Positions 42,121-51,348 are shown, counted from the stretch's first letter. The stretch is DNA of 64,000 nucleotides from Acidobacteriota bacterium (GCA_965205505.1 CBDBHB010000009.1:1536001-1600000); one strand, 5' to 3'. Made by a program: numbers and translations. Notes: generated by a model from the letters alone, not told the origin.

Positions 42121-44346
42121 ATGCGCCGAACTCTATCCCGTACTTGTCTTGTCAGCCTTGTAGTAATGGCCTTGGGCAGCCTGGCCACATCGCAGCTGCA
42201 GGCCGCTCCGGCACAGAGTGGCCGGATCACGCTCGAGTCGCTGTATAGCCCTGACTCGAGCGAGCGGGTGAGCTACTCGGGCTCGGTGCCTTCGCTCACC
42301 TGGGTCGACGACGCGAGCTATGTCGAGCGTGGCGAAAGCGGTGAATGGATGAAGATCGACGCCGCTACCGGGACGTCCTCCGCGGCCGTGGACATGGATG
42401 CCCTGGGCGCTTCGCTTGAAGACCTTGCGGGGCTGACCGACGACGACCTGGTCACGCTGACCGAGCGTGCCGCCTCCGGCATCGCACGTGGACGAGTCTC
42501 CGTCTTGCTCAACCACGCCAACGATCTGTTCGTGGTGTTTGCCACCGGCGCCGCCAAGAGGTTGACGTTCAACGCCGCGCCGGAGGTGGGCGAGGAGCTG
42601 TCACCTGACGGCCGCTTCGTATCGTTTGTCCGCGACTACAACCTCCACCTCATCGAGGTGGACTGCGGCCGCGAGCGGGCGCTGACTACCGACGGGTCCG
42701 ACGAGCTGTTCTACGGGCGTCTCGATTGGGTCTATCAGGAGGAAATCTACGGTCGTGGGAACTTCAAGGGGTACTGGTGGAGCCCCGACTCGAGCGCGCT
42801 TGCTTTCCTCAAGCTCGATGAGTCGCCGGTAAACGAGTTCACCGTGGTCGACCATATTCCCTCGACGCTCGATACCGAGGTGACCAACTATCCGAAGGCC
42901 GGAGATCCGAACCCCAAAGTGTGGCTCGGCGTGGTCAAGGCAGTTGGCGGCGAGGCAACGTGGATCGACGCCAAGAAGTACGAGCCCATTGAGCACCTGA
43001 TCGTCGGCGTTGGCTGGCATCCGAGCGGCGACCGTGTCGTGTATCAGGTCCAGGATCGTGAGCAGACCTGGCTCGAGCTCAATATGGGCAATCCGGCTAC
43101 CGGTAACAGTACGACGCTCATCCGCGAGACCACCGAGGCGTTTGTTCAGGAGATGGGCGGACCGAACTGGCTTCCGGACGGCAGCTTCCTTTGGTTCTCC
43201 GAGCGCACCGGCTTCAAGCACCTCTATCACTATGCGTTCGAGGGCTTCGATATCCCGGTGATCAGACACCAGGTGACCGAGGGCGAATGGGAGGCGCGGA
43301 CGCTACACGGTGTCGACGATGACGGTTGGGTGTACTTCTCGGGCACGGAGCACAGCCCCATTTCCAATCACGTGTATCGAGTTCGCGTCGACGGCTCGGG
43401 GCTCGAGCGCCTGTCGTCGGTCGAGGGCGACCACGCGGCGAGTTTCAACCCCGGGCTCACTCACTATCTTGACACCTGGAGCGACGTCACCACGCCGCCG
43501 CAGATTCGGCTCCACACGGACGACGGCTCCGAGGTGCGCGTCGTTGCCGAGAATCGGGTGACAGCGCTCGAGGATGTCGATCTCGGCACCGTGGAGTTCC
43601 TTCAGGTGTCTACGCGCGATGGCTTCCTGATGGAGGCGATGATCATCAAGCCGCCCGATTTCGACCCCGTCAAGCGCTACCCCGTGTTGCAATACAACTA
43701 CGGCGGCCCGCATGCGCCGGTGGTGCGCGACAGGTGGGGTGGGTCGCGCTACATGTGGCACCAGATGCTTGCGCAGCGCGGCTACATCATCTGGATGTGC
43801 GATAACCGCTCGGCCTCCGGCAAGGGCATCAAGCCCACCTGGTATGCCTACCAGCAGATGGGCGTGGTGGAGCTGCGCGATATCGAAGATGGACTCGACT
43901 GGCTCAAGCAACAGTCGTGGGTCGACGGCGACCGTCTCGGAATCTGGGGCTGGAGCTACGGGGGCTTCATGGCTTCTTTTGCGCTAACGCACTCGAAGTC
44001 GTTCAAGGCGGCCATCGCCGGAGCGCCAGTGACCGACTGGCGCCTGTACGACACCATCTACACCGAGCGCTACATGCGCATGCCGCAGAACAACCCCGAG
44101 GGTTACGATTCCACGTCGGTGGTGAAGGCGGCGGGAAACCTGCACGGCAAGCTGCTCATCGTGCACGGGACCATGGACGACAACGTGCATTTCCAGAACT
44201 CGGTGCAGTTGGTCTACGAGCTACAGAAGGCGGGTAAGGACTTCGAGTTCATGATGTACCCGCGCTCACGCCACGGCGTGCGGCAACGCGAGCTTGTCTG
44301 GCACCTGCAGCGCACGATGACCGACTTCGTGCTGGAGAACCTCTAG
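42121..44346 (+). CDS. Dipeptidyl-peptidase IV-like S9B peptidase
   Basis: DWVYQEE, YPKAG, GWSYGG, DDNVH, RHG. Confidence 0.92.
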   Translation: MRRTLSRTCLVSLVVMALGSLATSQLQAAPAQSGRITLESLYSPDSSERVSYSGSVPSLTWVDDASYVERGESGEWMKIDAATGTSSAAVDMDALGASLEDLAGLTDDDLVTLTERAASGIARGRVSVLLNHANDLFVVFATGAAKRLTFNAAPEVGEELSPDGRFVSFVRDYNLHLIEVDCGRERALTTDGSDELFYGRLDWVYQEEIYGRGNFKGYWWSPDSSALAFLKLDESPVNEFTVVDHIPSTLDTEVTNYPKAGDPNPKVWLGVVKAVGGEATWIDAKKYEPIEHLIVGVGWHPSGDRVVYQVQDREQTWLELNMGNPATGNSTTLIRETTEAFVQEMGGPNWLPDGSFLWFSERTGFKHLYHYAFEGFDIPVIRHQVTEGEWEARTLHGVDDDGWVYFSGTEHSPISNHVYRVRVDGSGLERLSSVEGDHAASFNPGLTHYLDTWSDVTTPPQIRLHTDDGSEVRVVAENRVTALEDVDLGTVEFLQVSTRDGFLMEAMIIKPPDFDPVKRYPVLQYNYGGPHAPVVRDRWGGSRYMWHQMLAQRGYIIWMCDNRSASGKGIKPTWYAYQQMGVVELRDIEDGLDWLKQQSWVDGDRLGIWGWSYGGFMASFALTHSKSFKAAIAGAPVTDWRLYDTIYTERYMRMPQNNPEGYDSTSVVKAAGNLHGKLLIVHGTMDDNVHFQNSVQLVYELQKAGKDFEFMMYPRSRHGVRQRELVWHLQRTMTDFVLENL

Positions 44347-44421
44347 TGTCAGGACACTAGCAGCCCTACCGGAGGCCGATACGGTCGTCCGACCACCCCT
44401 TGTAGACGACGCGGACGGAAC

Positions 44422-45108
44422 ATGGCACGAACCTATTTCAGCTCCAGTACCTTCAAGTTTCTGCGTGACCTGAACCGCAATAACGACCGAGACTGGTTCA
44501 AGGCCCGCCAGGATCGTTACGAGCGAACCGTGCGTGAGCCAGCGCTCGATTTCATCGCCGACTTCGAAGCGCCGCTTCATAGGATCAGCCGTCACTTCGT
44601 CGCCCTCGCGAAGAAGTCGGGCGGCTCGCTGTTTCGTATCCACCGCGATGTCCGGTTCTCGAAAGACAAGAGCCCCTACAAGCCCTACACCGGGGTGCAG
44701 TTTCGTCACGAACAGGGCAAGGATGCTCACTGCCCGGGGTACTACCTTCACCTCCAGCCCAAGAGCGTGTTCGCCGCAGCCGGGATCTGGAGACCCGATG
44801 GGCCGACGCTTCTGAAGATCCGCGAGCTCATCGCCGCTGATCCCGCCGGCTGGAAGAAGGCGGTCGGGGGTAAGCCCTTCAAAGATGCCTTCGTGCTGGA
44901 GGGCGACTCCTTGAAGCGGCCGCCGAGGGGCTTCGACGCCGACCACCCTTCGATTGAGGATCTGAAGCGCAAGGATTTCATCGCCGTGGCGCGAGTCAGC
45001 GAGAAGTACGTAACCGGCAACACCTTCATGAAGGACATCAATGCCTTGTGGCGGAAGGCGACGCCGCTGATGCGGTTTCTCTGCGACGCGATCGACGTAC
45101 CGTTCTAG
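44422..45108 (+). CDS. DUF2461 (TIGR02453) family protein
   Basis: NNDRDWF, FRIHRDVRFSKDKSPYK. Confidence 0.88.
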   Translation: MARTYFSSSTFKFLRDLNRNNDRDWFKARQDRYERTVREPALDFIADFEAPLHRISRHFVALAKKSGGSLFRIHRDVRFSKDKSPYKPYTGVQFRHEQGKDAHCPGYYLHLQPKSVFAAAGIWRPDGPTLLKIRELIAADPAGWKKAVGGKPFKDAFVLEGDSLKRPPRGFDADHPSIEDLKRKDFIAVARVSEKYVTGNTFMKDINALWRKATPLMRFLCDAIDVPF

Positions 45109-45176
45109 TAAGGGAGGCGGCTGCGGCGACTATCGGAGTTCTCCCGGCGGAGCTGCGTAGGTCCGATGGAGACGAC

Positions 45177-45293
45177 GCCTAGCCAGAAGCAGCAAAAGAC
45201 GGATCGCTCTCGTCACGGGCCTTACGTACGCAACGCCCGCGCCAAGCCGGCTACGCCGGACGCGCTCACAGCTTAGCCTCAGTTCCGCTAGCC
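45177..45293 (+). repeat. Degenerate attC-like (integron cassette) palindrome
   Basis: Ends GCCTAGC / GCTAGCC near-complementary (decayed RYYYAAC/GTTRRRY); internal CGGGC..GCCCG stem. Confidence 0.3.
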
Positions 45294-45405
45294 AGACATG
45301 AGCGAGATGAAGGAATTGCTCAGAACCGCTGCGCGTTCGGTTCGCAGCGTTAGTGGACCGTCGTCGGCTGCGAATGTCAGAGTCCTGAGAGCGCGAGGGA
45401 AAACC

Positions 45406-45620
45406 GTAGCCGCCCTACAGATCCGTGACGCGACCGAGGCAGACAACATACGTGCGCTTGCGGCGCTTCACGTGACGACCTGGAATGACATGCACGGACG
45501 GCGGCGGAGCGCGTCGACTGAGAAACTGCGCGAGCGCCAGTGGCCGTGTTCGATAGTCTGGATTGCGGCTGGTTCGGCCTGGTTGTCGTGAGACCGAATG
45601 GCGATCTGGTTCACCGAGTA
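45406..45620 (+). pseudogene. GNAT acetyltransferase remnant
   Basis: IRDATEAD..ALAALHVTTW..LRERQW, then shifted frame AVFDSLDCGWFGLVVVRPNGDLV. Confidence 0.55.
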
Positions 45621-45718
45621 GCGCCGTAGCCTAGAGACGGCGGCCGATGCTTCAGAGCGCGTAGGCGGTTAGATTCGGCCCCGTTGGCGGCGTGGGGACA
45701 ATCGGGCGTGGTTCATGG

Positions 45719-46105
45719 TCAAAGCGCCGCGTGGACTAGGATCATGATCGCCACCATGGCGGCGACGAAGCCAGTCTCCGTGGCGATGGCGTAATGGCTC
45801 TTTCGTGAGAACAGACCGCCGGCGCCCATGAGCGCCATGATCGTGAGCGCGACGAGGATGATCGTAAGCAGCGCGTCTGCCGCCGCAGTTACGCCGACGA
45901 TCCACGCCAGCAAGAACGTGGCGACGAATTGAGCAAGCAGCGCTGGTACCGGTTGGCCGCTGCCTGCTTCCTCCGAAATCCCGACGCCTTCCATCCACTT
46001 CGCGCCGAACAGTTTGGGAGAGTACCAGAGTCCACCCAGCATGAATGCGAGGACCGTTCCTACCCCGACCGCCAGCCAGTTGACGTTCGCTGTGATCTCA
46101 GCCAT
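45719..46105 (-). CDS. DUF1761-family membrane protein
   Basis: NWLAV..LGGLWYSPKLFGAKW; four TM segments. Confidence 0.8.
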   Translation of the reverse strand: MAEITANVNWLAVGVGTVLAFMLGGLWYSPKLFGAKWMEGVGISEEAGSGQPVPALLAQFVATFLLAWIVGVTAAADALLTIILVALTIMALMGAGGLFSRKSHYAIATETGFVAAMVAIMILVHAAL

Positions 46106-46332
46106 TGAGCTTCGACTCCTTCCCAGTCTGGGGATATCGGTTGGAAGCGTGCAAGCTTCTTACAGCAGGTCGCTCAATAGGAGGCTCGGCGAGCCGGGTG
46201 AACGACCGGATCCACGACTATCGCCGGAGTCTTCGCGAGTACGACGGTGCCGGCTCGAAGGGGTGTGTGTGCCCCCCCGTTCTCTCCATCTTGTCGGCTA
46301 CCGCCAAGCCCTCGATCTGCGCCGATGCTCTC

Positions 46333-46920
46333 CTACGGATAGAGCATCCCGCTCCGCCAGCCGCCGTCCTCGGTGCGCTCGAACACCGTGCGATCGTGCA
46401 ATCGCCCCAGACGCGATTCCCAGAATTCGATTCGCGAAGGATTCAATAGATACCCTCCCCAGAATGCCGGTCGGGGGATCCTCTGCCCGAGCCGTCGCGC
46501 CTTTTCGGTGACGTAGGCGATGATCAGCTCTCGGCGACCCTGTATTGGCTCGCTTTGCCGCGATGCCCAGGCGCCGAGCTGGCTCTGGCGCGCCCGAGTG
46601 GCGAAGTAGGCGTCGGCTTCCGCGTCCGAGACGCGGGTAACGGTGCCCTCGACGCGGATCTGCTTGGCGAGGGTGGGCCAGTAGAAAACCAGAGCGGCGC
46701 GGGGGTTCGCGTCGAGCTCGCTGGCTTTGCGGCTGCCGTAGTTCGTGTAGAAGACAAAGCCGCGCTCGTCGGCGCACTTCAGCAGCACCATTCGCGCCGA
46801 CGGGTCCCCCTCTGCCGTGGTGGTCGCCAGGGTCATAGCCGTGGCGCGCTGCGGCTCGCCGTTGCGTTCGGCCTGTCGCTGCAACTGCAGGAAGCGAGCG
46901 ATGGGATCGTGATTGCGCAT
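46333..46920 (-). CDS. pdxH: Pyridoxine/pyridoxamine 5'-phosphate oxidase
   Basis: AMTLAT, RMVLLK, FYTNYGSRK, QIRVEG, WGGY, IEFW, RLHDR. Confidence 0.95.
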   Translation of the reverse strand: MRNHDPIARFLQLQRQAERNGEPQRATAMTLATTTAEGDPSARMVLLKCADERGFVFYTNYGSRKASELDANPRAALVFYWPTLAKQIRVEGTVTRVSDAEADAYFATRARQSQLGAWASRQSEPIQGRRELIIAYVTEKARRLGQRIPRPAFWGGYLLNPSRIEFWESRLGRLHDRTVFERTEDGGWRSGMLYP

Positions 46921-47138
46921 GGGGGTGATTATCGCCCGGACGGTGGTGCGGTGCGGCGCCGGTTGATCGCAGACATGCCTGGCGCTCCGAGATTTCGGTG
47001 TTCACCCGCCGGCAACGCGAGTCCATCGAAGCTCTCAAGTAATTGAAAAAACTTAGCTTAGAGAATTTTTCTCTGCCGCCTCGAGAAAAACCCGCGCTGC
47101 GCTTGCCGGAATGAAGCGTCCGTAGTTTGATCACTCGG

Positions 47139-47601
47139 GTCCGGATGATTGCCCCGGCCAAACGGGAGATTCGGAACCTGTTGAGGTTGCAAAACGACCT
47201 TGAGTAGAGAACGGCTCGACGAGCCTGGAAGCGGAACCGCAAGGGGAAGCGAAAGGGCTCGGGGGATAAACGGGAGCTCGAGAGGGAGCCCGGGATGCCC
47301 GGGGAGGCGCTGGAAGCCCGCAAGGGTGGAAGGCGACTGCCTGAACGAGATGGACCAGACGTCTGCAAGGACGAGTGGGAAGTCTCGACGGGGCTGGAAG
47401 GCGAACCCGCAAGGGGGAGCCAGAGAGCAACGGAGCCAACGGCACGTTCGTCAGAGTGATGCCGATGGCAGGGTCGACGGAAAGGCTCGCAAGAGTCGGG
47501 AAGTCGAGCCATAGAGGCGAAGGAAGCTCGAGGAAACGATCGCGACGGAGGGTTCCGGACCCCACGGGAGGCCGTCGCGGTAATCATCCGGGCATTTTTT
47601 T
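47139..47601 (+). ncRNA. Candidate large modular structured ncRNA (~455 nt), family unrecognised
   Basis: 15-bp 5'/3' closing helix followed by A-T7; five GCAA-capped arms with GGAA-type internal loops; purine-rich; AT-rich region upstream. Confidence 0.75.
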
Positions 47602-47735
47602 GGTACCCGGAATGGCCCGAGGGGATGCGGGGCGAACCTAGCAGCCAGCTGGTGTTCGCCTCGCTGGGGCGCCGTCAGCTCGCCGCTTCGCGGGCTCGGC
47701 TTTACCGGCTTGCCTTCCGTTTGCTCACCCGGGCG

Positions 47736-48539
47736 TCACCCATCGTCGAGTGGCAACGGCTCGACGATCAGGTTGCGCCAAATGCACGCGGGAGCGATCG
47801 GTATGCGAACGTTCCAGCGGGCAGTGTCCTCGATCCGAGGAGCCTGTAGGCTCACCTCGTAGAGACCCACCGCCAGGTCGTTGATCTCGAACCAGCCGTC
47901 GCTGTCGCTCAGGTAAGTTCGGTGATCGCCTTCGGCCACGTCTAAGCTGATTCGCACCCCGGGGACCGGGCCGCCGGGATCGAGGCGTATGTCGGGGCGC
48001 CGCTCGGCGTTGAGTGGCAGTTGCTGACGCTCCCGGTAGACCATGCCATACAGCGACACGACCTTCTCGGCTGTCTCGAGGCCGCGCAAGTAGGCCAGAT
48101 CTGTCTCGGCGTCTCTGGCTAGCCGGGTGCGCGAACAGATTCCGGTCTCGTATCGGCCGGTAAGAGCCGACTGGTTGGCGTAAACGAGGTAGGTGCGGTT
48201 CGTGGCGAACTGGAATCCGCAGTCTCCACCGCCGGCGCCGGTCGCCACGATCACCTCGCGCTTACCCTCGGCGCCTTGCCACCGTTCCTGCACCCGCAAG
48301 GTTGCCAGGATCTTGACCTGCACATCGCCGTCCGTTTCCTCGGTAACAGTGTCCAGGCGGGTCACCCGTCCGACAAAGATCGCGGCAGTCTGCCACCACA
48401 CCTCGCAGGCAGGGCGCTTCGGCGACATACAGGTGCAGCGGGCCGTGGCCACGCCGTTGGTGCCGGGCGTCCCCAGTCCCAGAGTCGCGGGCGCAAGGCC
48501 CAGGATGGCTGCCGCCAGCAGCGGCCGCAGTTGCTTCAT
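47736..48539 (-). CDS. Secreted protein with TIMP/NTR-like domain and C-terminal carboxypeptidase-regulatory-like domain
   Basis: Signal peptide then CTC; AIFVGRV; GGGDCGFQF..YLVYA; ICSRT; SDSDGWFEI. Confidence 0.6.
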   Translation of the reverse strand: MKQLRPLLAAAILGLAPATLGLGTPGTNGVATARCTCMSPKRPACEVWWQTAAIFVGRVTRLDTVTEETDGDVQVKILATLRVQERWQGAEGKREVIVATGAGGGDCGFQFATNRTYLVYANQSALTGRYETGICSRTRLARDAETDLAYLRGLETAEKVVSLYGMVYRERQQLPLNAERRPDIRLDPGGPVPGVRISLDVAEGDHRTYLSDSDGWFEINDLAVGLYEVSLQAPRIEDTARWNVRIPIAPACIWRNLIVEPLPLDDG

Positions 48540-48741
48540 TGTGGGATCCTCAGGGCGACAGGGGAACGACGATACAAGCATACACAAACCCGGCGCGGCG
48601 CGGTCCACATCGGCCAGCGTCAGGCGCGGCCGCGGTCGATCAGCTAACCTTCTTCGACAACGAGTTCGATTTTCGAGCGGCGGCGAATCGGGGTGTTCCC
48701 GCGTCCTACGTTCCGAGGACACTTCTATCAGGAGAGGTTTC

Positions 48742-49302
48742 ATGAAGATCCGCAATGTCGTGTTGCAAACGGTTTCCCTGACGATCGCGGTGATGATCGG
48801 CGCGGCGCTGCCGCTGAATGCGCAGAACGCCCCGGCGGGGCGCGTGGTCGTTGTCGACGGTGAACGGGTTACCGCCGAAACGCAGGTCGGGCAGGAAGTA
48901 CGGACGCAGGTGGAGGCTGCCGCCACCAATTGGCAGTCGCAGTCAGACCAGTTGGAGGCCGAGCTGCAGAGCCTGGCGACTAGTCGCCAGCAGCAGGCGT
49001 TGACGCTCAGCGCTCAGGCAATGGCCGATCTCAACTCGCAGATCGAAGTGAAGCAGATCTCCATCCAGCGGTTGCAAGACGATGCTCGTCGTCAGCTCGA
49101 TCGCCTCCAGCTTGAGGGTCAACAGCGCATCAACCAGGTGCTCGTTCCGGTGCTGGAGAGACTCGCAGCGGAGCAGGGCTGGGATCTCGTATTCGATACA
49201 CGACTCCTGCAGACGGGCAGCCTGCTCCATTACTCCACCTCTCTCGACGTAACCGACGAGTTCATCGCTGGCGTCAACGCCGCTTCGGGGAGCTCTGATT
49301 GA
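48742..49302 (+). CDS. OmpH/Skp periplasmic chaperone
   Basis: Signal peptide, VVVVD, Gln-rich coiled coil, GWDLVFD..LDVTDE. Confidence 0.8.
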   Translation: MKIRNVVLQTVSLTIAVMIGAALPLNAQNAPAGRVVVVDGERVTAETQVGQEVRTQVEAAATNWQSQSDQLEAELQSLATSRQQQALTLSAQAMADLNSQIEVKQISIQRLQDDARRQLDRLQLEGQQRINQVLVPVLERLAAEQGWDLVFDTRLLQTGSLLHYSTSLDVTDEFIAGVNAASGSSD

Positions 49303-49309
49303 CGGCCTG

Positions 49310-50824
49310 CTAGGGCGCCAACAGCTCCCTGAGCCGCTGGATGGGTACGCCGAGGTTCGACCCGCCGAACTCGGGCAACACCGCGGCGTTGAGGGCCACC
49401 ACGGCTCCGTCGAGCGCCAGTACCGGGCCACCGGCGCCTCCGTGCGTTGTCTCGGCGTCGTAGACGATGGCTCCGGCGGTGATTTGGCCAATGCTGCCCA
49501 TAGTGGCGAGTGGCGCCACATAGCCACCGCGCGCCAGATGTCCGGCAAGGTCCCAGAAGTCCACCGGGTCCTGGCCTAGGATGCTCGAGACGAACGTGGG
49601 ATCGGCTCGGGCCAGGAGCGACCGGATCCCGGCCGGGTAGCCCAGCACCAAGACTTCGTCGCCGATCTCCGGTGGAGCCTCCGCGAGTCGGAGACCGGCA
49701 ACGCGTTCGCCCAGGCCGGTGCTTCGTAGTATCGCCACGTCGGCCTGTGTGTGGCCGGTCTCCACTGCGAGGTCGAACGGCTCATCGACGCCCGGGAGGT
49801 AGCCGACGAGCCGTCGCATTTTCGGCGTGAAACCCTGTTCGATGAGATGTTGGGCGGCGGCGTCGAACTCCCAGGGCATCGCGACGTGCCGATTCGTGGC
49901 GACGACGTCGAGATCGGCGAGCACGAACCCGGTGCCCGTATAGCGGAACTCGAGCGGTGAGCCCCCGCCATCCGCTGCGACAACCGTCGGAGCGTCGCCG
50001 GAGGCCACGCCTGCGGATCGCAATGCGCGCCCGCTACGCGGCTCCACGAACCCGTAGGATCCCTGTATGAAGACAACGGAGGCCGATGCTTCCGAGATCA
50101 CTCGTCCGCGCGCCGTAGTTCTATTCTCGAGCGCCTCGATCCGGGCCAGGGTATCGTTGATGCGGAAGTCGAGCTGCGCTCGCACGTCGTTGTAGTCGTT
50201 GATCGTGAACGCGGCGCGTTCGGACGCCGCGAACAGCTCGACCAGCCCTTCGACGCCCTCTAGTGGGACACTGAGCTCGCGTCCCAGCCGCGCGTCACGT
50301 GTCCAAAGCATGCCCAGTCCTGCAACCAGAGCAAAGGCTCCCAGCAAGAACGCCGCTCGAACAGCCGGTCGCACCTGGGTGGCGAGCTCGCGGGCCGGTC
50401 CCAAGACCAGGATGCCGATGCGGTCCAGCGTTCCGTGGCCACCGAGCTTGGCGCAGCCGAGGCAATCGTTGAAAGCTTCGCGTACGCTCTTGTACGCGGC
50501 GCCCGCCACGCGTGGGCGGAAGCGCAGCAGCATGCGATCGCCGATCTCGATGAGGTCACCGGCGTGCAGCGATCGATTTCCGGCGCGCGTACCGTTCACC
50601 CAGGCTTCGGTATCACCGTGGACGTCGAGATACCAACCGTCGTTATCGGCAACCAACGCGGCGATGGGCTGCTCGCCAACCCGCGGCTGCCCGTAGACGA
50701 GCTTGAGTCGGCCACCCTCTAGCGGTACGAGATGGGTGGTACCGAAAACGCGTCGAGTACGGCCGCGCTCGGGTCCTGAAAGATGGACGAGCTGTGCGGC
50801 GGCAGCCGAAACGCTCTGTATCAT
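49310..50824 (-). CDS. FHA-like + TM + trypsin-like protease domain protein (catalytic Ser appears as Ala)
   Basis: WVNG..LHAGDLIEIG; GTGF, TNRHVA, ADVA, LGYP, HGGAGGP. Confidence 0.75.
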   Translation of the reverse strand: MIQSVSAAAAQLVHLSGPERGRTRRVFGTTHLVPLEGGRLKLVYGQPRVGEQPIAALVADNDGWYLDVHGDTEAWVNGTRAGNRSLHAGDLIEIGDRMLLRFRPRVAGAAYKSVREAFNDCLGCAKLGGHGTLDRIGILVLGPARELATQVRPAVRAAFLLGAFALVAGLGMLWTRDARLGRELSVPLEGVEGLVELFAASERAAFTINDYNDVRAQLDFRINDTLARIEALENRTTARGRVISEASASVVFIQGSYGFVEPRSGRALRSAGVASGDAPTVVAADGGGSPLEFRYTGTGFVLADLDVVATNRHVAMPWEFDAAAQHLIEQGFTPKMRRLVGYLPGVDEPFDLAVETGHTQADVAILRSTGLGERVAGLRLAEAPPEIGDEVLVLGYPAGIRSLLARADPTFVSSILGQDPVDFWDLAGHLARGGYVAPLATMGSIGQITAGAIVYDAETTHGGAGGPVLALDGAVVALNAAVLPEFGGSNLGVPIQRLRELLAP

Positions 50825-50922
50825 CGTCGCCCAGCCTCCTGATAGGCGGCAGCGTAGCACCCAAGTGTGCCTGAACGCGCGGGGTCAGACTGGTTGCCAG
50901 ACTATCTCTGGTATGCGCAATT

Positions 50923-51348
50923 TCAGAGCGTCAGGTGAGGTTTCAGCGTCAGCCAGTCGTCGCTCGAATAGATGCTCGGTGCGACCTCGATCAGACGTGG
51001 GAGCATCTTGAACACCGATGTCTGGTTCCATTCGCCACCGAGCCGCGTCCGGAAGCCGGCCTCGTGCAACTCTGCGGCGATCTGACCGAAACCCTTGTCG
51101 TCGACGATCATCTTGAGCATGTGGATCATCACCTTGATCTCGTCGACGGCGGGTTCGAGCGTCATGCAATCGCTCGCCACTCGCAACCCGTACGGTACGG
51201 CCTCGGTAGACGTGTCTTCCTCTTCTCCTTCGACGGTTCGTTCCCACACGACTGCCAGGGCGCGCCAGCCGTCCTTCGCCTTGGATCGCAGTACCTCCTC
51301 GGTTAGCGGTCCGTCGATGACCTCATGCTTGCGTTCGATCTTTGCCAT
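50923..51348 (-). CDS. Small protein with a recombinase-like DNA-binding segment
   Basis: VPYG..., IAAELHEAGFRTRLGGEW..SV; no catalytic serine-recombinase domain. Confidence 0.55.
   Translation of the reverse strand: MAKIERKHEVIDGPLTEEVLRSKAKDGWRALAVVWERTVEGEEEDTSTEAVPYGLRVASDCMTLEPAVDEIKVMIHMLKMIVDDKGFGQIAAELHEAGFRTRLGGEWNQTSVFKMLPRLIEVAPSIYSSDDWLTLKPHLTL

Follow-up and report, generated by a model that had tools for sequence, protein, structure and literature searches.

The window, which is the whole stretch of 64,000 nucleotides of Acidobacteriota DNA analysed here, contains a stand-alone, strongly transcribed and structured non-coding RNA gene at 47137..47601 on the + strand (window coordinates are used throughout). 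The gene is self-enclosed, measures ~460 nt and is present in a single copy in the 5.98-Mb source genome, of which the completeness is 96.3%. The upstream pdxH gene is divergent from the RNA and the next gene, at 47736-48929 (-), is convergent to it, which rules out a cis-regulatory leader at this locus. Among the neighbouring genes, which are pdxH and the genes for a CarboxypepD_reg protein, a trypsin-like protease, a citrate synthase, an SNF symporter and a thioredoxin-like protein, no functional lead and no RNA-binding protein was found.

The + strand is rich in purines (65%; A115, C109, G181 and T50 over 455 nt), in agreement with the original prediction that was made from the sequence. 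That prediction also pointed to about 25 GGA triplets; the count holds, with 26 present, but it does not represent an enrichment, since dinucleotide shuffles contain 22.2 +/- 3.0 triplets and 133/1000 of them reach 26. Two tetranucleotides are enriched over 1000 dinucleotide shuffles: GCAA occurs 7 times as compared to 1.8 +/- 1.2 (0/1000 reach 7) and GGAA 12 times as compared to 6.9 +/- 2.1 (17/1000 reach 12). The elements that frame the gene are the following.

47086..47090, + strand: A-tract, UP-element-like, upstream of the -35 hexamer, as read from the sequence
47103..47108, + strand: -35-like hexamer TTGCCG, part of a promoter pattern conserved in the family
47126..47131, + strand: -10-like hexamer TTTGAT, 17 nt past the -35; the same TTTGAT in 8/10 RNAs of the source organism's own taxonomic family
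47595..47601, + strand: T7 run, putative intrinsic terminator, directly past the closing helix (A, then T7)

The RNA probably starts ~5-8 nt past the -10 hexamer, which itself lies 5 nt ahead of the first paired region, and probably ends at the T7 run. Comparison of the 38 members of the RNA family described below showed that a TTGnnn-N16-18-TnnnnT pair lies 4-6 nt upstream of the RNA in 34/38, that the -35 hexamer is TTGACA in all 28 sequences from a sister family, and that the upstream stretch holds an A4+ run in 20/38. A generic scan for consensus promoters and terminators listed neither element at the RNA, because its rules, which demand 3-8 nt in the hairpin loop and A as the second base of the -10 hexamer, exclude both this -10 sequence and a helix with so large a loop: the 15-bp closing helix with its T7 encloses 425 nt. 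The terminator reading consequently depends on the closing helix abutting T7, since the scan lists none. The helix-A-T7 arrangement is compatible with the earlier proposal that the unit ends like a terminator, and a T-run past the closing helix is present in 38/38 members (weaker in some C copies). Contigs from RNA libraries stop near 47585, although contigs cannot show transcript ends.

Transcription was evaluated in RNA libraries: 20 runs were present among the matches listed, 9 of which are recorded as RNA, and 4 runs from 4 studies were compared. The contigs of 3 metatranscriptome studies cover ~47148-47585 and nothing on the pdxH side. In run X8 the RNA has a k-mer depth of 2,773, with 3.4 for the downstream gene and 0 for the pdxH side, and run X6 contains 433 contigs with a summed depth of ~4e5, contig depth being a poor measure, as contigs can neither rank genes nor give the ends or strand of a transcript. 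The uncovered parts, on the pdxH side and far downstream, are not taken as evidence of silence. The RNA libraries contain the element at high cover without its flanks, and the conserved promoter upstream fits this high cover. Few sequences of these organisms are covered more heavily than this RNA in libraries of environmental RNA.

Fold of the stalk and the crown

The minimum free energy of the + strand is -223.4 kcal/mol as compared to -179.3 +/- 5.8 kcal/mol for 100 dinucleotide shuffles (z -7.54; 0/100 as good); the fold of the - strand has a z of -1.81. A consensus structure of the expanded form, derived from 7 homologs, comprises 140 pairs with 93.7% of the cells paired. Double-sided changes are found in 28/140 pairs versus 11.0 +/- 2.5 in shuffles (0/500), and in 1-8 pairs of slid controls in which the partners were shifted by 1-3 columns. 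These 7 expanded sequences come from 2 genera, five from the source organism's own genus (91-97% identity) and two from genus g5 (67-70%); the covariation count did not include the other three expanded RNAs, from G001, G007 and L068. The homologs thus show the compensatory changes that the original prediction led one to expect, and they lend the fold good support, which falls short of final because the set of sequences is small and its members are related. Arms 2 and 6 are the weakest-supported parts, with 78.6-90.5% of the cells paired across their helices.

Long open reading frames cross the RNA on both strands, for example one of 429 amino acids at 46298-47587 (-), and could suggest that the locus is a protein-coding stretch, or else a chance GC-rich palindromic spacer, rather than an RNA gene. 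Both readings are ruled out by the strand-specific fold, the covariation and the element-limited RNA cover. The coding reading is contradicted in addition by the same-genus relatives, in which the frames over the RNA are lost or have gained stops, and by the 429-aa ORF, for which no Pfam match was found. The probability that 47137-47601 is not an RNA gene is practically nil.

The structure consists of a long-range stalk that carries a single multiloop with seven arms. The stalk is built from the following elements.

47139..47159, + strand: 5' strand of P1/P2, pairs with 47570-47593, with bulges in the 3' strand
47170..47179, + strand: 5' strand of P3 (C helix of the k-turn), pairs with 47550-47559; 4/10 pairs with double-sided changes
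47180..47185, + strand: k-turn-type loop, bulged strand GUUGAG, a 3-nt bulge followed by G, A, G
47186..47217, + strand: upper stalk, 5' strands of P4-P7, pair with 47514-47546 (helices 4-7)
47547..47549, + strand: k-turn-type loop, non-bulged strand GGA (positions 3n, 2n, 1n)
47570..47593, + strand: 3' strand of P1/P2, preceded by GGGAGG, a motif common to all paralogs

The closing helix of 47139-47153 with 47579-47593 is exactly as originally described, with 15 bp of which 2 are G-U, followed by A and T7. P1/P2 comprises 21 pairs, 19 of them invariant among 7 RNAs and 1 with a double-sided change, and it is separated by a 3x3 purine loop from a short helix formed by 47163-68 and 47560-66. 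Further up, double-sided changes occur in 4/6 pairs of helix 4 (47186-91 with 47541-46) and in 3/8 pairs of helix 6 (47198-205 with 47526-33). Two hairpins that had been placed at 47181-47203 and 47539-47581 do not belong to the conserved fold; they compete with the long-range stalk helices, which are preferred because they carry compensatory changes. All three types of the RNA (A, B and C; see below) retain the 3' motif GGGAGGC..TCG.GG. The conserved part of the molecule is the stalk, not the arms.

The asymmetric 6x3 loop above P3 resembles a kink-turn, for which we used the definition given in PMC8191799. In the bulged strand the pattern NNN-GA-N is found in 27/28 A and B RNAs, the exception being the A RNA of G013 with an A at position 1b, and in the non-bulged strand G-A lies next to the C helix in 28/28 (GGA in 27, AGA in 1). 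The sequence pattern of a standard k-turn is thus present in 27/28 of these RNAs, and the helices that flank the loop covary. K-turns with G at 3n are described as folding well in metal ions (PMC8191799), and the G at this position predicts that the k-turn would fold here in metal ions without a protein. No gene of the L7Ae family was found in the source genome, which fits an ion-folded k-turn. We infer a kink at this loop from the sequence pattern; if real, it would bring the apex or the crown back alongside the invariant P1/P2.

The crown of the window RNA has the following arms.

47221..47260, + strand: arm 1, GCAA cap, three GGAA/GAAA purine loops
47263..47300, + strand: arm 2, GAGA cap; helices 11 and 12 not kept in genus g5
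47301..47342, + strand: arm 3, GCAA cap, symmetric GGAA/GGAA loop; corresponds to 47308-35 of the original prediction
47347..47386, + strand: arm 4, GCAA cap; helices 17 and 18 with double-sided changes in 6/13 pairs
47389..47432, + strand: arm 5, GCAA cap; sequence similar to arm 1
47435..47469, + strand: arm 6, long hairpin whose TCAG loop lies within the conserved TTCGTCAGA
47471..47510, + strand: arm 7, GCAA cap, 5x5 purine loops; helices 23 and 24 with double-sided changes in 3/12 pairs

Five GCAA-capped arms had been predicted (47221-60, 47308-35, 47346-87, 47393-428 and 47474-507), and each folds as described, with purine internal loops; the total of five was too low, however, as the multiloop holds seven, the additional arms being 47263-47300 (GAGA loop) and 47435-47469. 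The arm loops are GCAA or GAGA in 6/7 and TCAG in arm 6. A common module is found in 5 arms and consists of a stem, a purine-purine internal loop of the GGAA/GGAA type, a short stem and the GCAA cap.

Family, paralogs and growth of the crown

The RNA belongs to no family of Rfam 15 (4227 models). In a cmscan of window positions 44000-51000 at E<=1 only two chance matches were obtained, both off the RNA, and a scan of ten homolog loci, which covered short A-type forms and C copies and left out B-type loci, gave no match on the RNA. The models for OLE, GOLLD, ROOL, HEARO, raiA, Acido-1 and Acido-Lenti-1 do not match at the RNA; the latter two, which are present in Rfam, appear among the motifs listed by Weinberg et al. 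2010 (PMC2864571). RNase P, tmRNA and SRP RNA, which the original prediction had excluded, are all found above cut-off elsewhere in the genome and not at the RNA, and the 6S model RF00013 is equally unmatched there. In the full-text literature no description of this RNA was found, although supplementary motif lists might contain one. The description as an unrecognised RNA is therefore correct at the level of Rfam: this is a real and novel RNA family, and the window RNA is an expanded member of it, found only in its own Acidobacteriota class.

Within this class the family is present in 25/26 genomes. Outside it, a covariance model of the short form gave 0/139 phylum genomes under strict filters, a search in which more distant relatives may be missed. 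BLAST searches located the RNA in 10/11 genomes of the source organism's own family, the miss being a 77%-complete genome, and the covariance model of the rod matched 15/15 genomes of the sister family. The lengths of the BLAST homologs vary from 460-465 nt in the own genus and 475-478 nt in g5 to 512 nt in G001, 353 nt in G007 and 178 nt in G006. The sister-family form is a rod of ~177-181 nt; its consensus fold, from 8 sister-family sequences, has 54 pairs of which 18 show compensatory changes. The rod is composed of the near-invariant P1/P2 with fixed bulges and GGGAGG, a stem, the k-turn-type loop and a GNRA-capped apex. The ~178-nt rod is the usual and ancestral form of the RNA, and in the own genus and most of its family the apex is replaced by the seven-arm multiloop; the stalk of rod and expanded forms can be aligned up to P4, the rod apex being the part replaced. 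A degenerate 3' motif scan of genome contigs with a T-run filter added one real locus out of the 120 examined among the matches listed, L068, from an Acidobacteriota MAG close to G004. Two other types of match were rejected: a hit at C8:398120-398184 in the source genome (model E 0.03) corresponds to a simple hairpin within GC-rich sequence and lacks the family motifs, and a stricter motif pattern gave 2 matches in metagenome contigs, both inside a protein-coding gene.

Three paralogs, A, B and C, are all present in each of the genomes G013, G016 and G020, which are the sister-family genomes at least 90% complete in which a rod-type A copy was found. Paralog A scores 160-196 bits with the covariance model. 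Paralog B is also ~178 nt long, scores 60-65 bits and folds with 53 pairs, 16 of them compensatory; it is flanked by divergent and convergent genes. Paralog C is a 103-nt RNA with a three-way junction, 31 pairs of which 6 are compensatory, and a mean column identity of 89%. The three types have in common the promoter type, the P1/P2 helices, the 3' motif GGGAGGC..UCG.GG and the T-run. In 10/10 loci paralog C is located between its own promoter and the start codon of hom, as a leader of the homoserine dehydrogenase gene, and in several loci the hom ATG lies ~10-16 nt past the T-run of C. BLAST searches for B and C in the own family gave short matches inside coding sequence, or nothing, and because of the limits of this search both are regarded as not found rather than absent. 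In own-family genomes with the same hom gene order C was likewise not found. A tblastn search of the source genome with the sister-family hom protein gave no match; a Pfam profile located the hom domain there inside an 827-aa open frame.

Sequence comparison further indicated how the crown has grown. Arm 5 matches arm 1 with 80% identity over 45 nt (E 1e-4; BLAST query 255-299 versus 86-129), and the arm 3 module GAAGCCCGCAAGGGTGGAA occurs in 3 copies in G001 and in 1 copy in G007. The arm 6 motif TTCGTCAGA is common to G007 and G001 and is not kept in g5. In RNA-library contigs of two runs a 12-nt deletion at 47233 takes out exactly the inner stem of arm 1, its GCAA cap and one GGAA, so that a GGAA-capped stem remains. 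The arm 1/arm 5 match, the module copies in G001 and the strain deletion together imply that modules are gained and lost as units. The modules arose by internal duplication and their number still differs between genera and between natural strains, which bears out the modular architecture claimed at the outset. The seven-arm crown is a lineage-specific outgrowth of a ~178-nt rod-shaped RNA. The history of this RNA can thus be read from a 178-nt rod, through two further paralogs, to a stepwise growth to 353-512 nt, and it offers a natural series of deletions and insertions.

Possible functions and likeness to known systems

The original prediction holds in its headline and errs in the details of its sponge analogy, and the main interest of the RNA is its family history. 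The preferred explanation as a whole, a stand-alone expanded RNA of this family together with the mechanism outlined next, is given an even chance. The mechanism by itself is a tentative proposal that falls somewhat short of an even chance: this abundant RNA would work in trans, in an architectural role or as a decoy, with a putative protein partner. According to this proposal the invariant stalk would be the specific recognition platform for the partner, the k-turn would fold the molecule back on itself, and the GNRA and tandem G-A modules would provide a binding site in many copies, in the manner of a titration device; alternatively, the modules may lock the crown into a compact body via tetraloop-to-helix contacts. 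The near-invariance of the stalk across paralogs with differing interiors points to recognition by one common partner or by the apex of the RNA itself, and the amplification of a two-fold-symmetric GGAA/GGAA and GNRA module suggests either that binding sites were multiplied or that tetraloops pack against helices. It is equally conceivable that the invariant stalk serves as a receptor for tertiary contacts, as a pocket for a ligand or as a surface to which RNA polymerase binds. The genes for the candidate partners CsrA, Ro/TROVE and L7Ae are all absent from the source genome.

Similar to the CsrB/RsmZ RNAs, the family described here has paralogs of differing length (103, 178 and 353-512 nt), a variable number of hairpin modules, strong promoters, putative intrinsic terminators and one member in an mRNA leader. 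However, CsrB/RsmZ RNAs carry hairpins with GGA loops, whereas here GNRA-capped stems with purine internal loops are found. The CsrB/Rsm-like protein sponge that had been suggested was rejected since GGA shows no enrichment, the hairpins are capped by GNRA and not by GGA loops, and no CsrA gene was found: a search with PF02599 gave no match in the 96.3%-complete genome, while a control search finds the protein in 3 genomes. With GGA unenriched, the one known sponge logic does not apply. A Y RNA of the YrlA type was rejected as well, as the Ro (TROVE) gene, PF05731, has no match in the genome.

The RNA also resembles OLE, GOLLD, ROOL and raiA, which are likewise stand-alone, structured RNAs of several hundred nucleotides that are highly expressed, lineage-restricted and rich in GNRA loops; the differences are that no model matches here, that the ancestor is a small rod, that size was reached via module repeats and that the taxon is another one. 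Few large abundant bacterial RNAs without known function have been described, and each of these four opened a field. The raiA RNA is described as being about as abundant as rRNA and tRNA (PMC12968392). By analogy with ROOL, GOLLD and OLE, the GNRA loops and tandem G-A loops of the crown, to which the original prediction already pointed, might make tetraloop-receptor contacts within or between molecules and so build a compact particle or a homo-oligomer from RNA only. Formation of homo-oligomers by natural large RNAs is described in PMC12286853, and cages and k-turn-driven filaments of short RNAs in 10.64898/2026.07.01.735769. Such an architecture would explain the excess of GCAA (7 versus 1.8 expected), the repetition of one arm design with the purine loop a few fixed pairs below the cap, and a k-turn that is predicted to fold without protein. 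We nevertheless consider it unlikely, as no known receptor motif was identified and the arms are dispensable in G006 and in the whole sister family, which have the rod only; any assembly role of the crown would therefore be a late addition.

A role as functional replacement of 6S RNA, in which the A and B rods (A in its expanded form here) would bind RNA polymerase, is suggested by the distribution of the two RNAs, which makes it a serious rival. Model RF00013 matches 95/139 phylum genomes outside the class and none inside it (0/26 genomes at E<=0.1 in a dedicated run, 0/12 in the phylum run). With RNase P, SRP RNA and tmRNA all located at other places in the genome, 6S is the one housekeeping RNA unaccounted for. 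A miss by this model is weak evidence, however, as it matches just 4-5/14 control genomes, and other families of the phylum without a 6S match (e.g. 0/10 and 0/4) are also without the RNA described here. Binding of RNA polymerase is described for the Ms1 RNA of mycobacteria, and the rod is similar to 6S and Ms1 in its size of ~178 nt, its shape and its high abundance in RNA libraries; its two rod paralogs, A and B, also parallel the pair of 6S RNAs that some bacteria have. The hallmark of 6S RNA is a large central bubble between long helices, which mimics an open promoter. Such a bubble is absent from the consensus folds of A, B and expanded A, where internal loops measure at most 5x6; the biggest ones are 5x5, 5x6 and 6x3, the last with the k-turn pattern. 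Furthermore, the RNA has no sequence or structure likeness to the genuine 6S RNAs of Acidobacteriota, which show no T-run, and no 6S match at E<=1 was obtained for the short A-type and C loci, the window region or the whole source genome. We therefore regard replacement of 6S as rather unlikely. Nevertheless, in a class without recognisable 6S RNA, and with a source genome that lacks CsrA, the family may fill a global regulatory role in a phylum that is widespread in soil and sediment.

A base-pairing small RNA was also considered, in which single-stranded GGGAGG and GGAG would bind targets rich in C and U, among them the 3' end of 16S rRNA. The RNA does have its own promoter and a putative terminator, and the motifs are kept: A and B retain GGAG and GGGAGG on the 3' half, and C retains GGGAGG together with GGAGG on the 5' half. 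Yet the ~460-nt RNA is almost fully paired and the motifs are located inside the k-turn and the helices of the consensus folds, which makes this mode of action highly improbable. The k-turn-type loop itself, which may fold the apex toward the base, recalls riboswitch aptamers and the drum and RAGATH-18 RNAs, all k-turn-containing RNAs with which this RNA has no sequence relation.

The position of paralog C, past its own promoter and ahead of the hom start codon in 10/10 loci, further raises the possibility of a ligand-sensing RNA, with the P1/P2 core as aptamer or expression platform, C controlling hom in cis, and A and B as trans derivatives. That C was not found in own-family genomes with the same gene order also speaks for this reading. 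For the family as a whole this explanation is very unlikely, as the window RNA is followed by a convergent gene and has none that it could control, B is flanked likewise, and the likeness of A and B to C is confined to P1/P2 and the 3' motif and does not extend to the junction. A wider version of the preferred trans-acting reading, which we put forward as doubtful, is a previously undescribed regulatory RNA system of the class's own: the stalk (P1/P2 with the k-turn) would work in cis in C, the hom leader, and in trans in the very abundant A and B decoys, which would titrate one factor, and amplification of the GNRA and tandem G-A hairpin module of the crown from one to seven arms would raise decoy capacity or particle architecture. 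If true, nature would here offer an example of RNA evolution through the copy number of a structural module. The small paralog C is in itself a separate, riboswitch-like candidate for the control of amino-acid biosynthesis.

Paralog C and homoserine dehydrogenase

The paralog of the window RNA that is designated C was found at ten loci of the sister family, namely L057, L058, L049 and seven further ones; the coordinates of the first three, each within the fetched locus, are:

L057:1501-1603 (-), paralog C
L058:1501-1603 (-), paralog C
L049:1501-1603 (+), paralog C

The RNA of 103 nt folds as a three-way junction with a mean column identity of 89%, has a TTGACA promoter of its own and is flanked in all ten loci by a DUF4412-like gene on one side and, on the other, by the start codon of a monofunctional homoserine dehydrogenase. 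At several loci the T-run is separated by 10-16 nt from the ATG, with no Shine-Dalgarno sequence in between. Paralog C appears to be a candidate riboswitch or attenuator not described before.

The form of homoserine dehydrogenase varies within the class. In the window's genus and in G006, an own-family genome with the 178-nt A form, the enzyme is held in an open frame of 820-934 aa, which is probably a fusion with aspartokinase, and the remaining class genomes have a form of 344-406 aa. In the window's genome (G000) the locus lies outside the window:

G000:C9:1980232-1980822 (-), homoserine dehydrogenase

Own-family genomes with the short form retain the order of the DUF4412 and homoserine dehydrogenase genes, and no C RNA was found between the two genes in these genomes.

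Paralog B

The ten copies of paralog B, from L053, L054 and eight further loci, are rods of ca. 178 nt with the stalk and k-turn pattern of the A type and a UUCG-type apex.

L053:1501-1679 (-), paralog B
L054:1501-1678 (-), paralog B

They are flanked by a divergent SNF-family symporter gene on one side and a convergent thioredoxin-like gene on the other, and some copies possess a second terminator hairpin.

The A-type RNA: strain variants and surroundings

RNA-library contigs from two runs revealed natural strain variants of the window RNA that miss 12 nt at 47233-47244; other variants in RNA-library contigs carry 1-nt deletions at 47481 and 47498, both in purine loops of arm 7. Directly 3′ of the T-run, GGTACCCGG (47602-47615) can base-pair with CCGGGCA in the closing helix's 3′ strand; in transcripts that read through the T-run, this may be an alternative pairing. 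A similar stretch containing CCCGG comes after the T-run in many A-type homologs, in the window's own family and the sister family alike.

In both families the A-type RNA and a gene for a trypsin-like (HtrA-type) protease lie at most 2 kb apart:

window 49310-50860 (-), protease gene
L046:2-1234 (-), protease gene

In seven sister-family loci the protease gene follows the RNA on the same strand at 150-305 nt; in the window it is convergent, 1.7 kb off.

Rfam matches and 6S RNA

Two cmscan matches elsewhere in the window, to a microRNA model (49590-49676 (+), E 0.66) and an archaeal snoRNA model (48988-49038 (-), E 0.19), are far below the gathering score and were dismissed as chance. The Rfam 6S model matches none of the 26 class genomes; outside the class 95 of 139 phylum genomes match, with no match in a handful of families (e.g. 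0/10 and 0/4).
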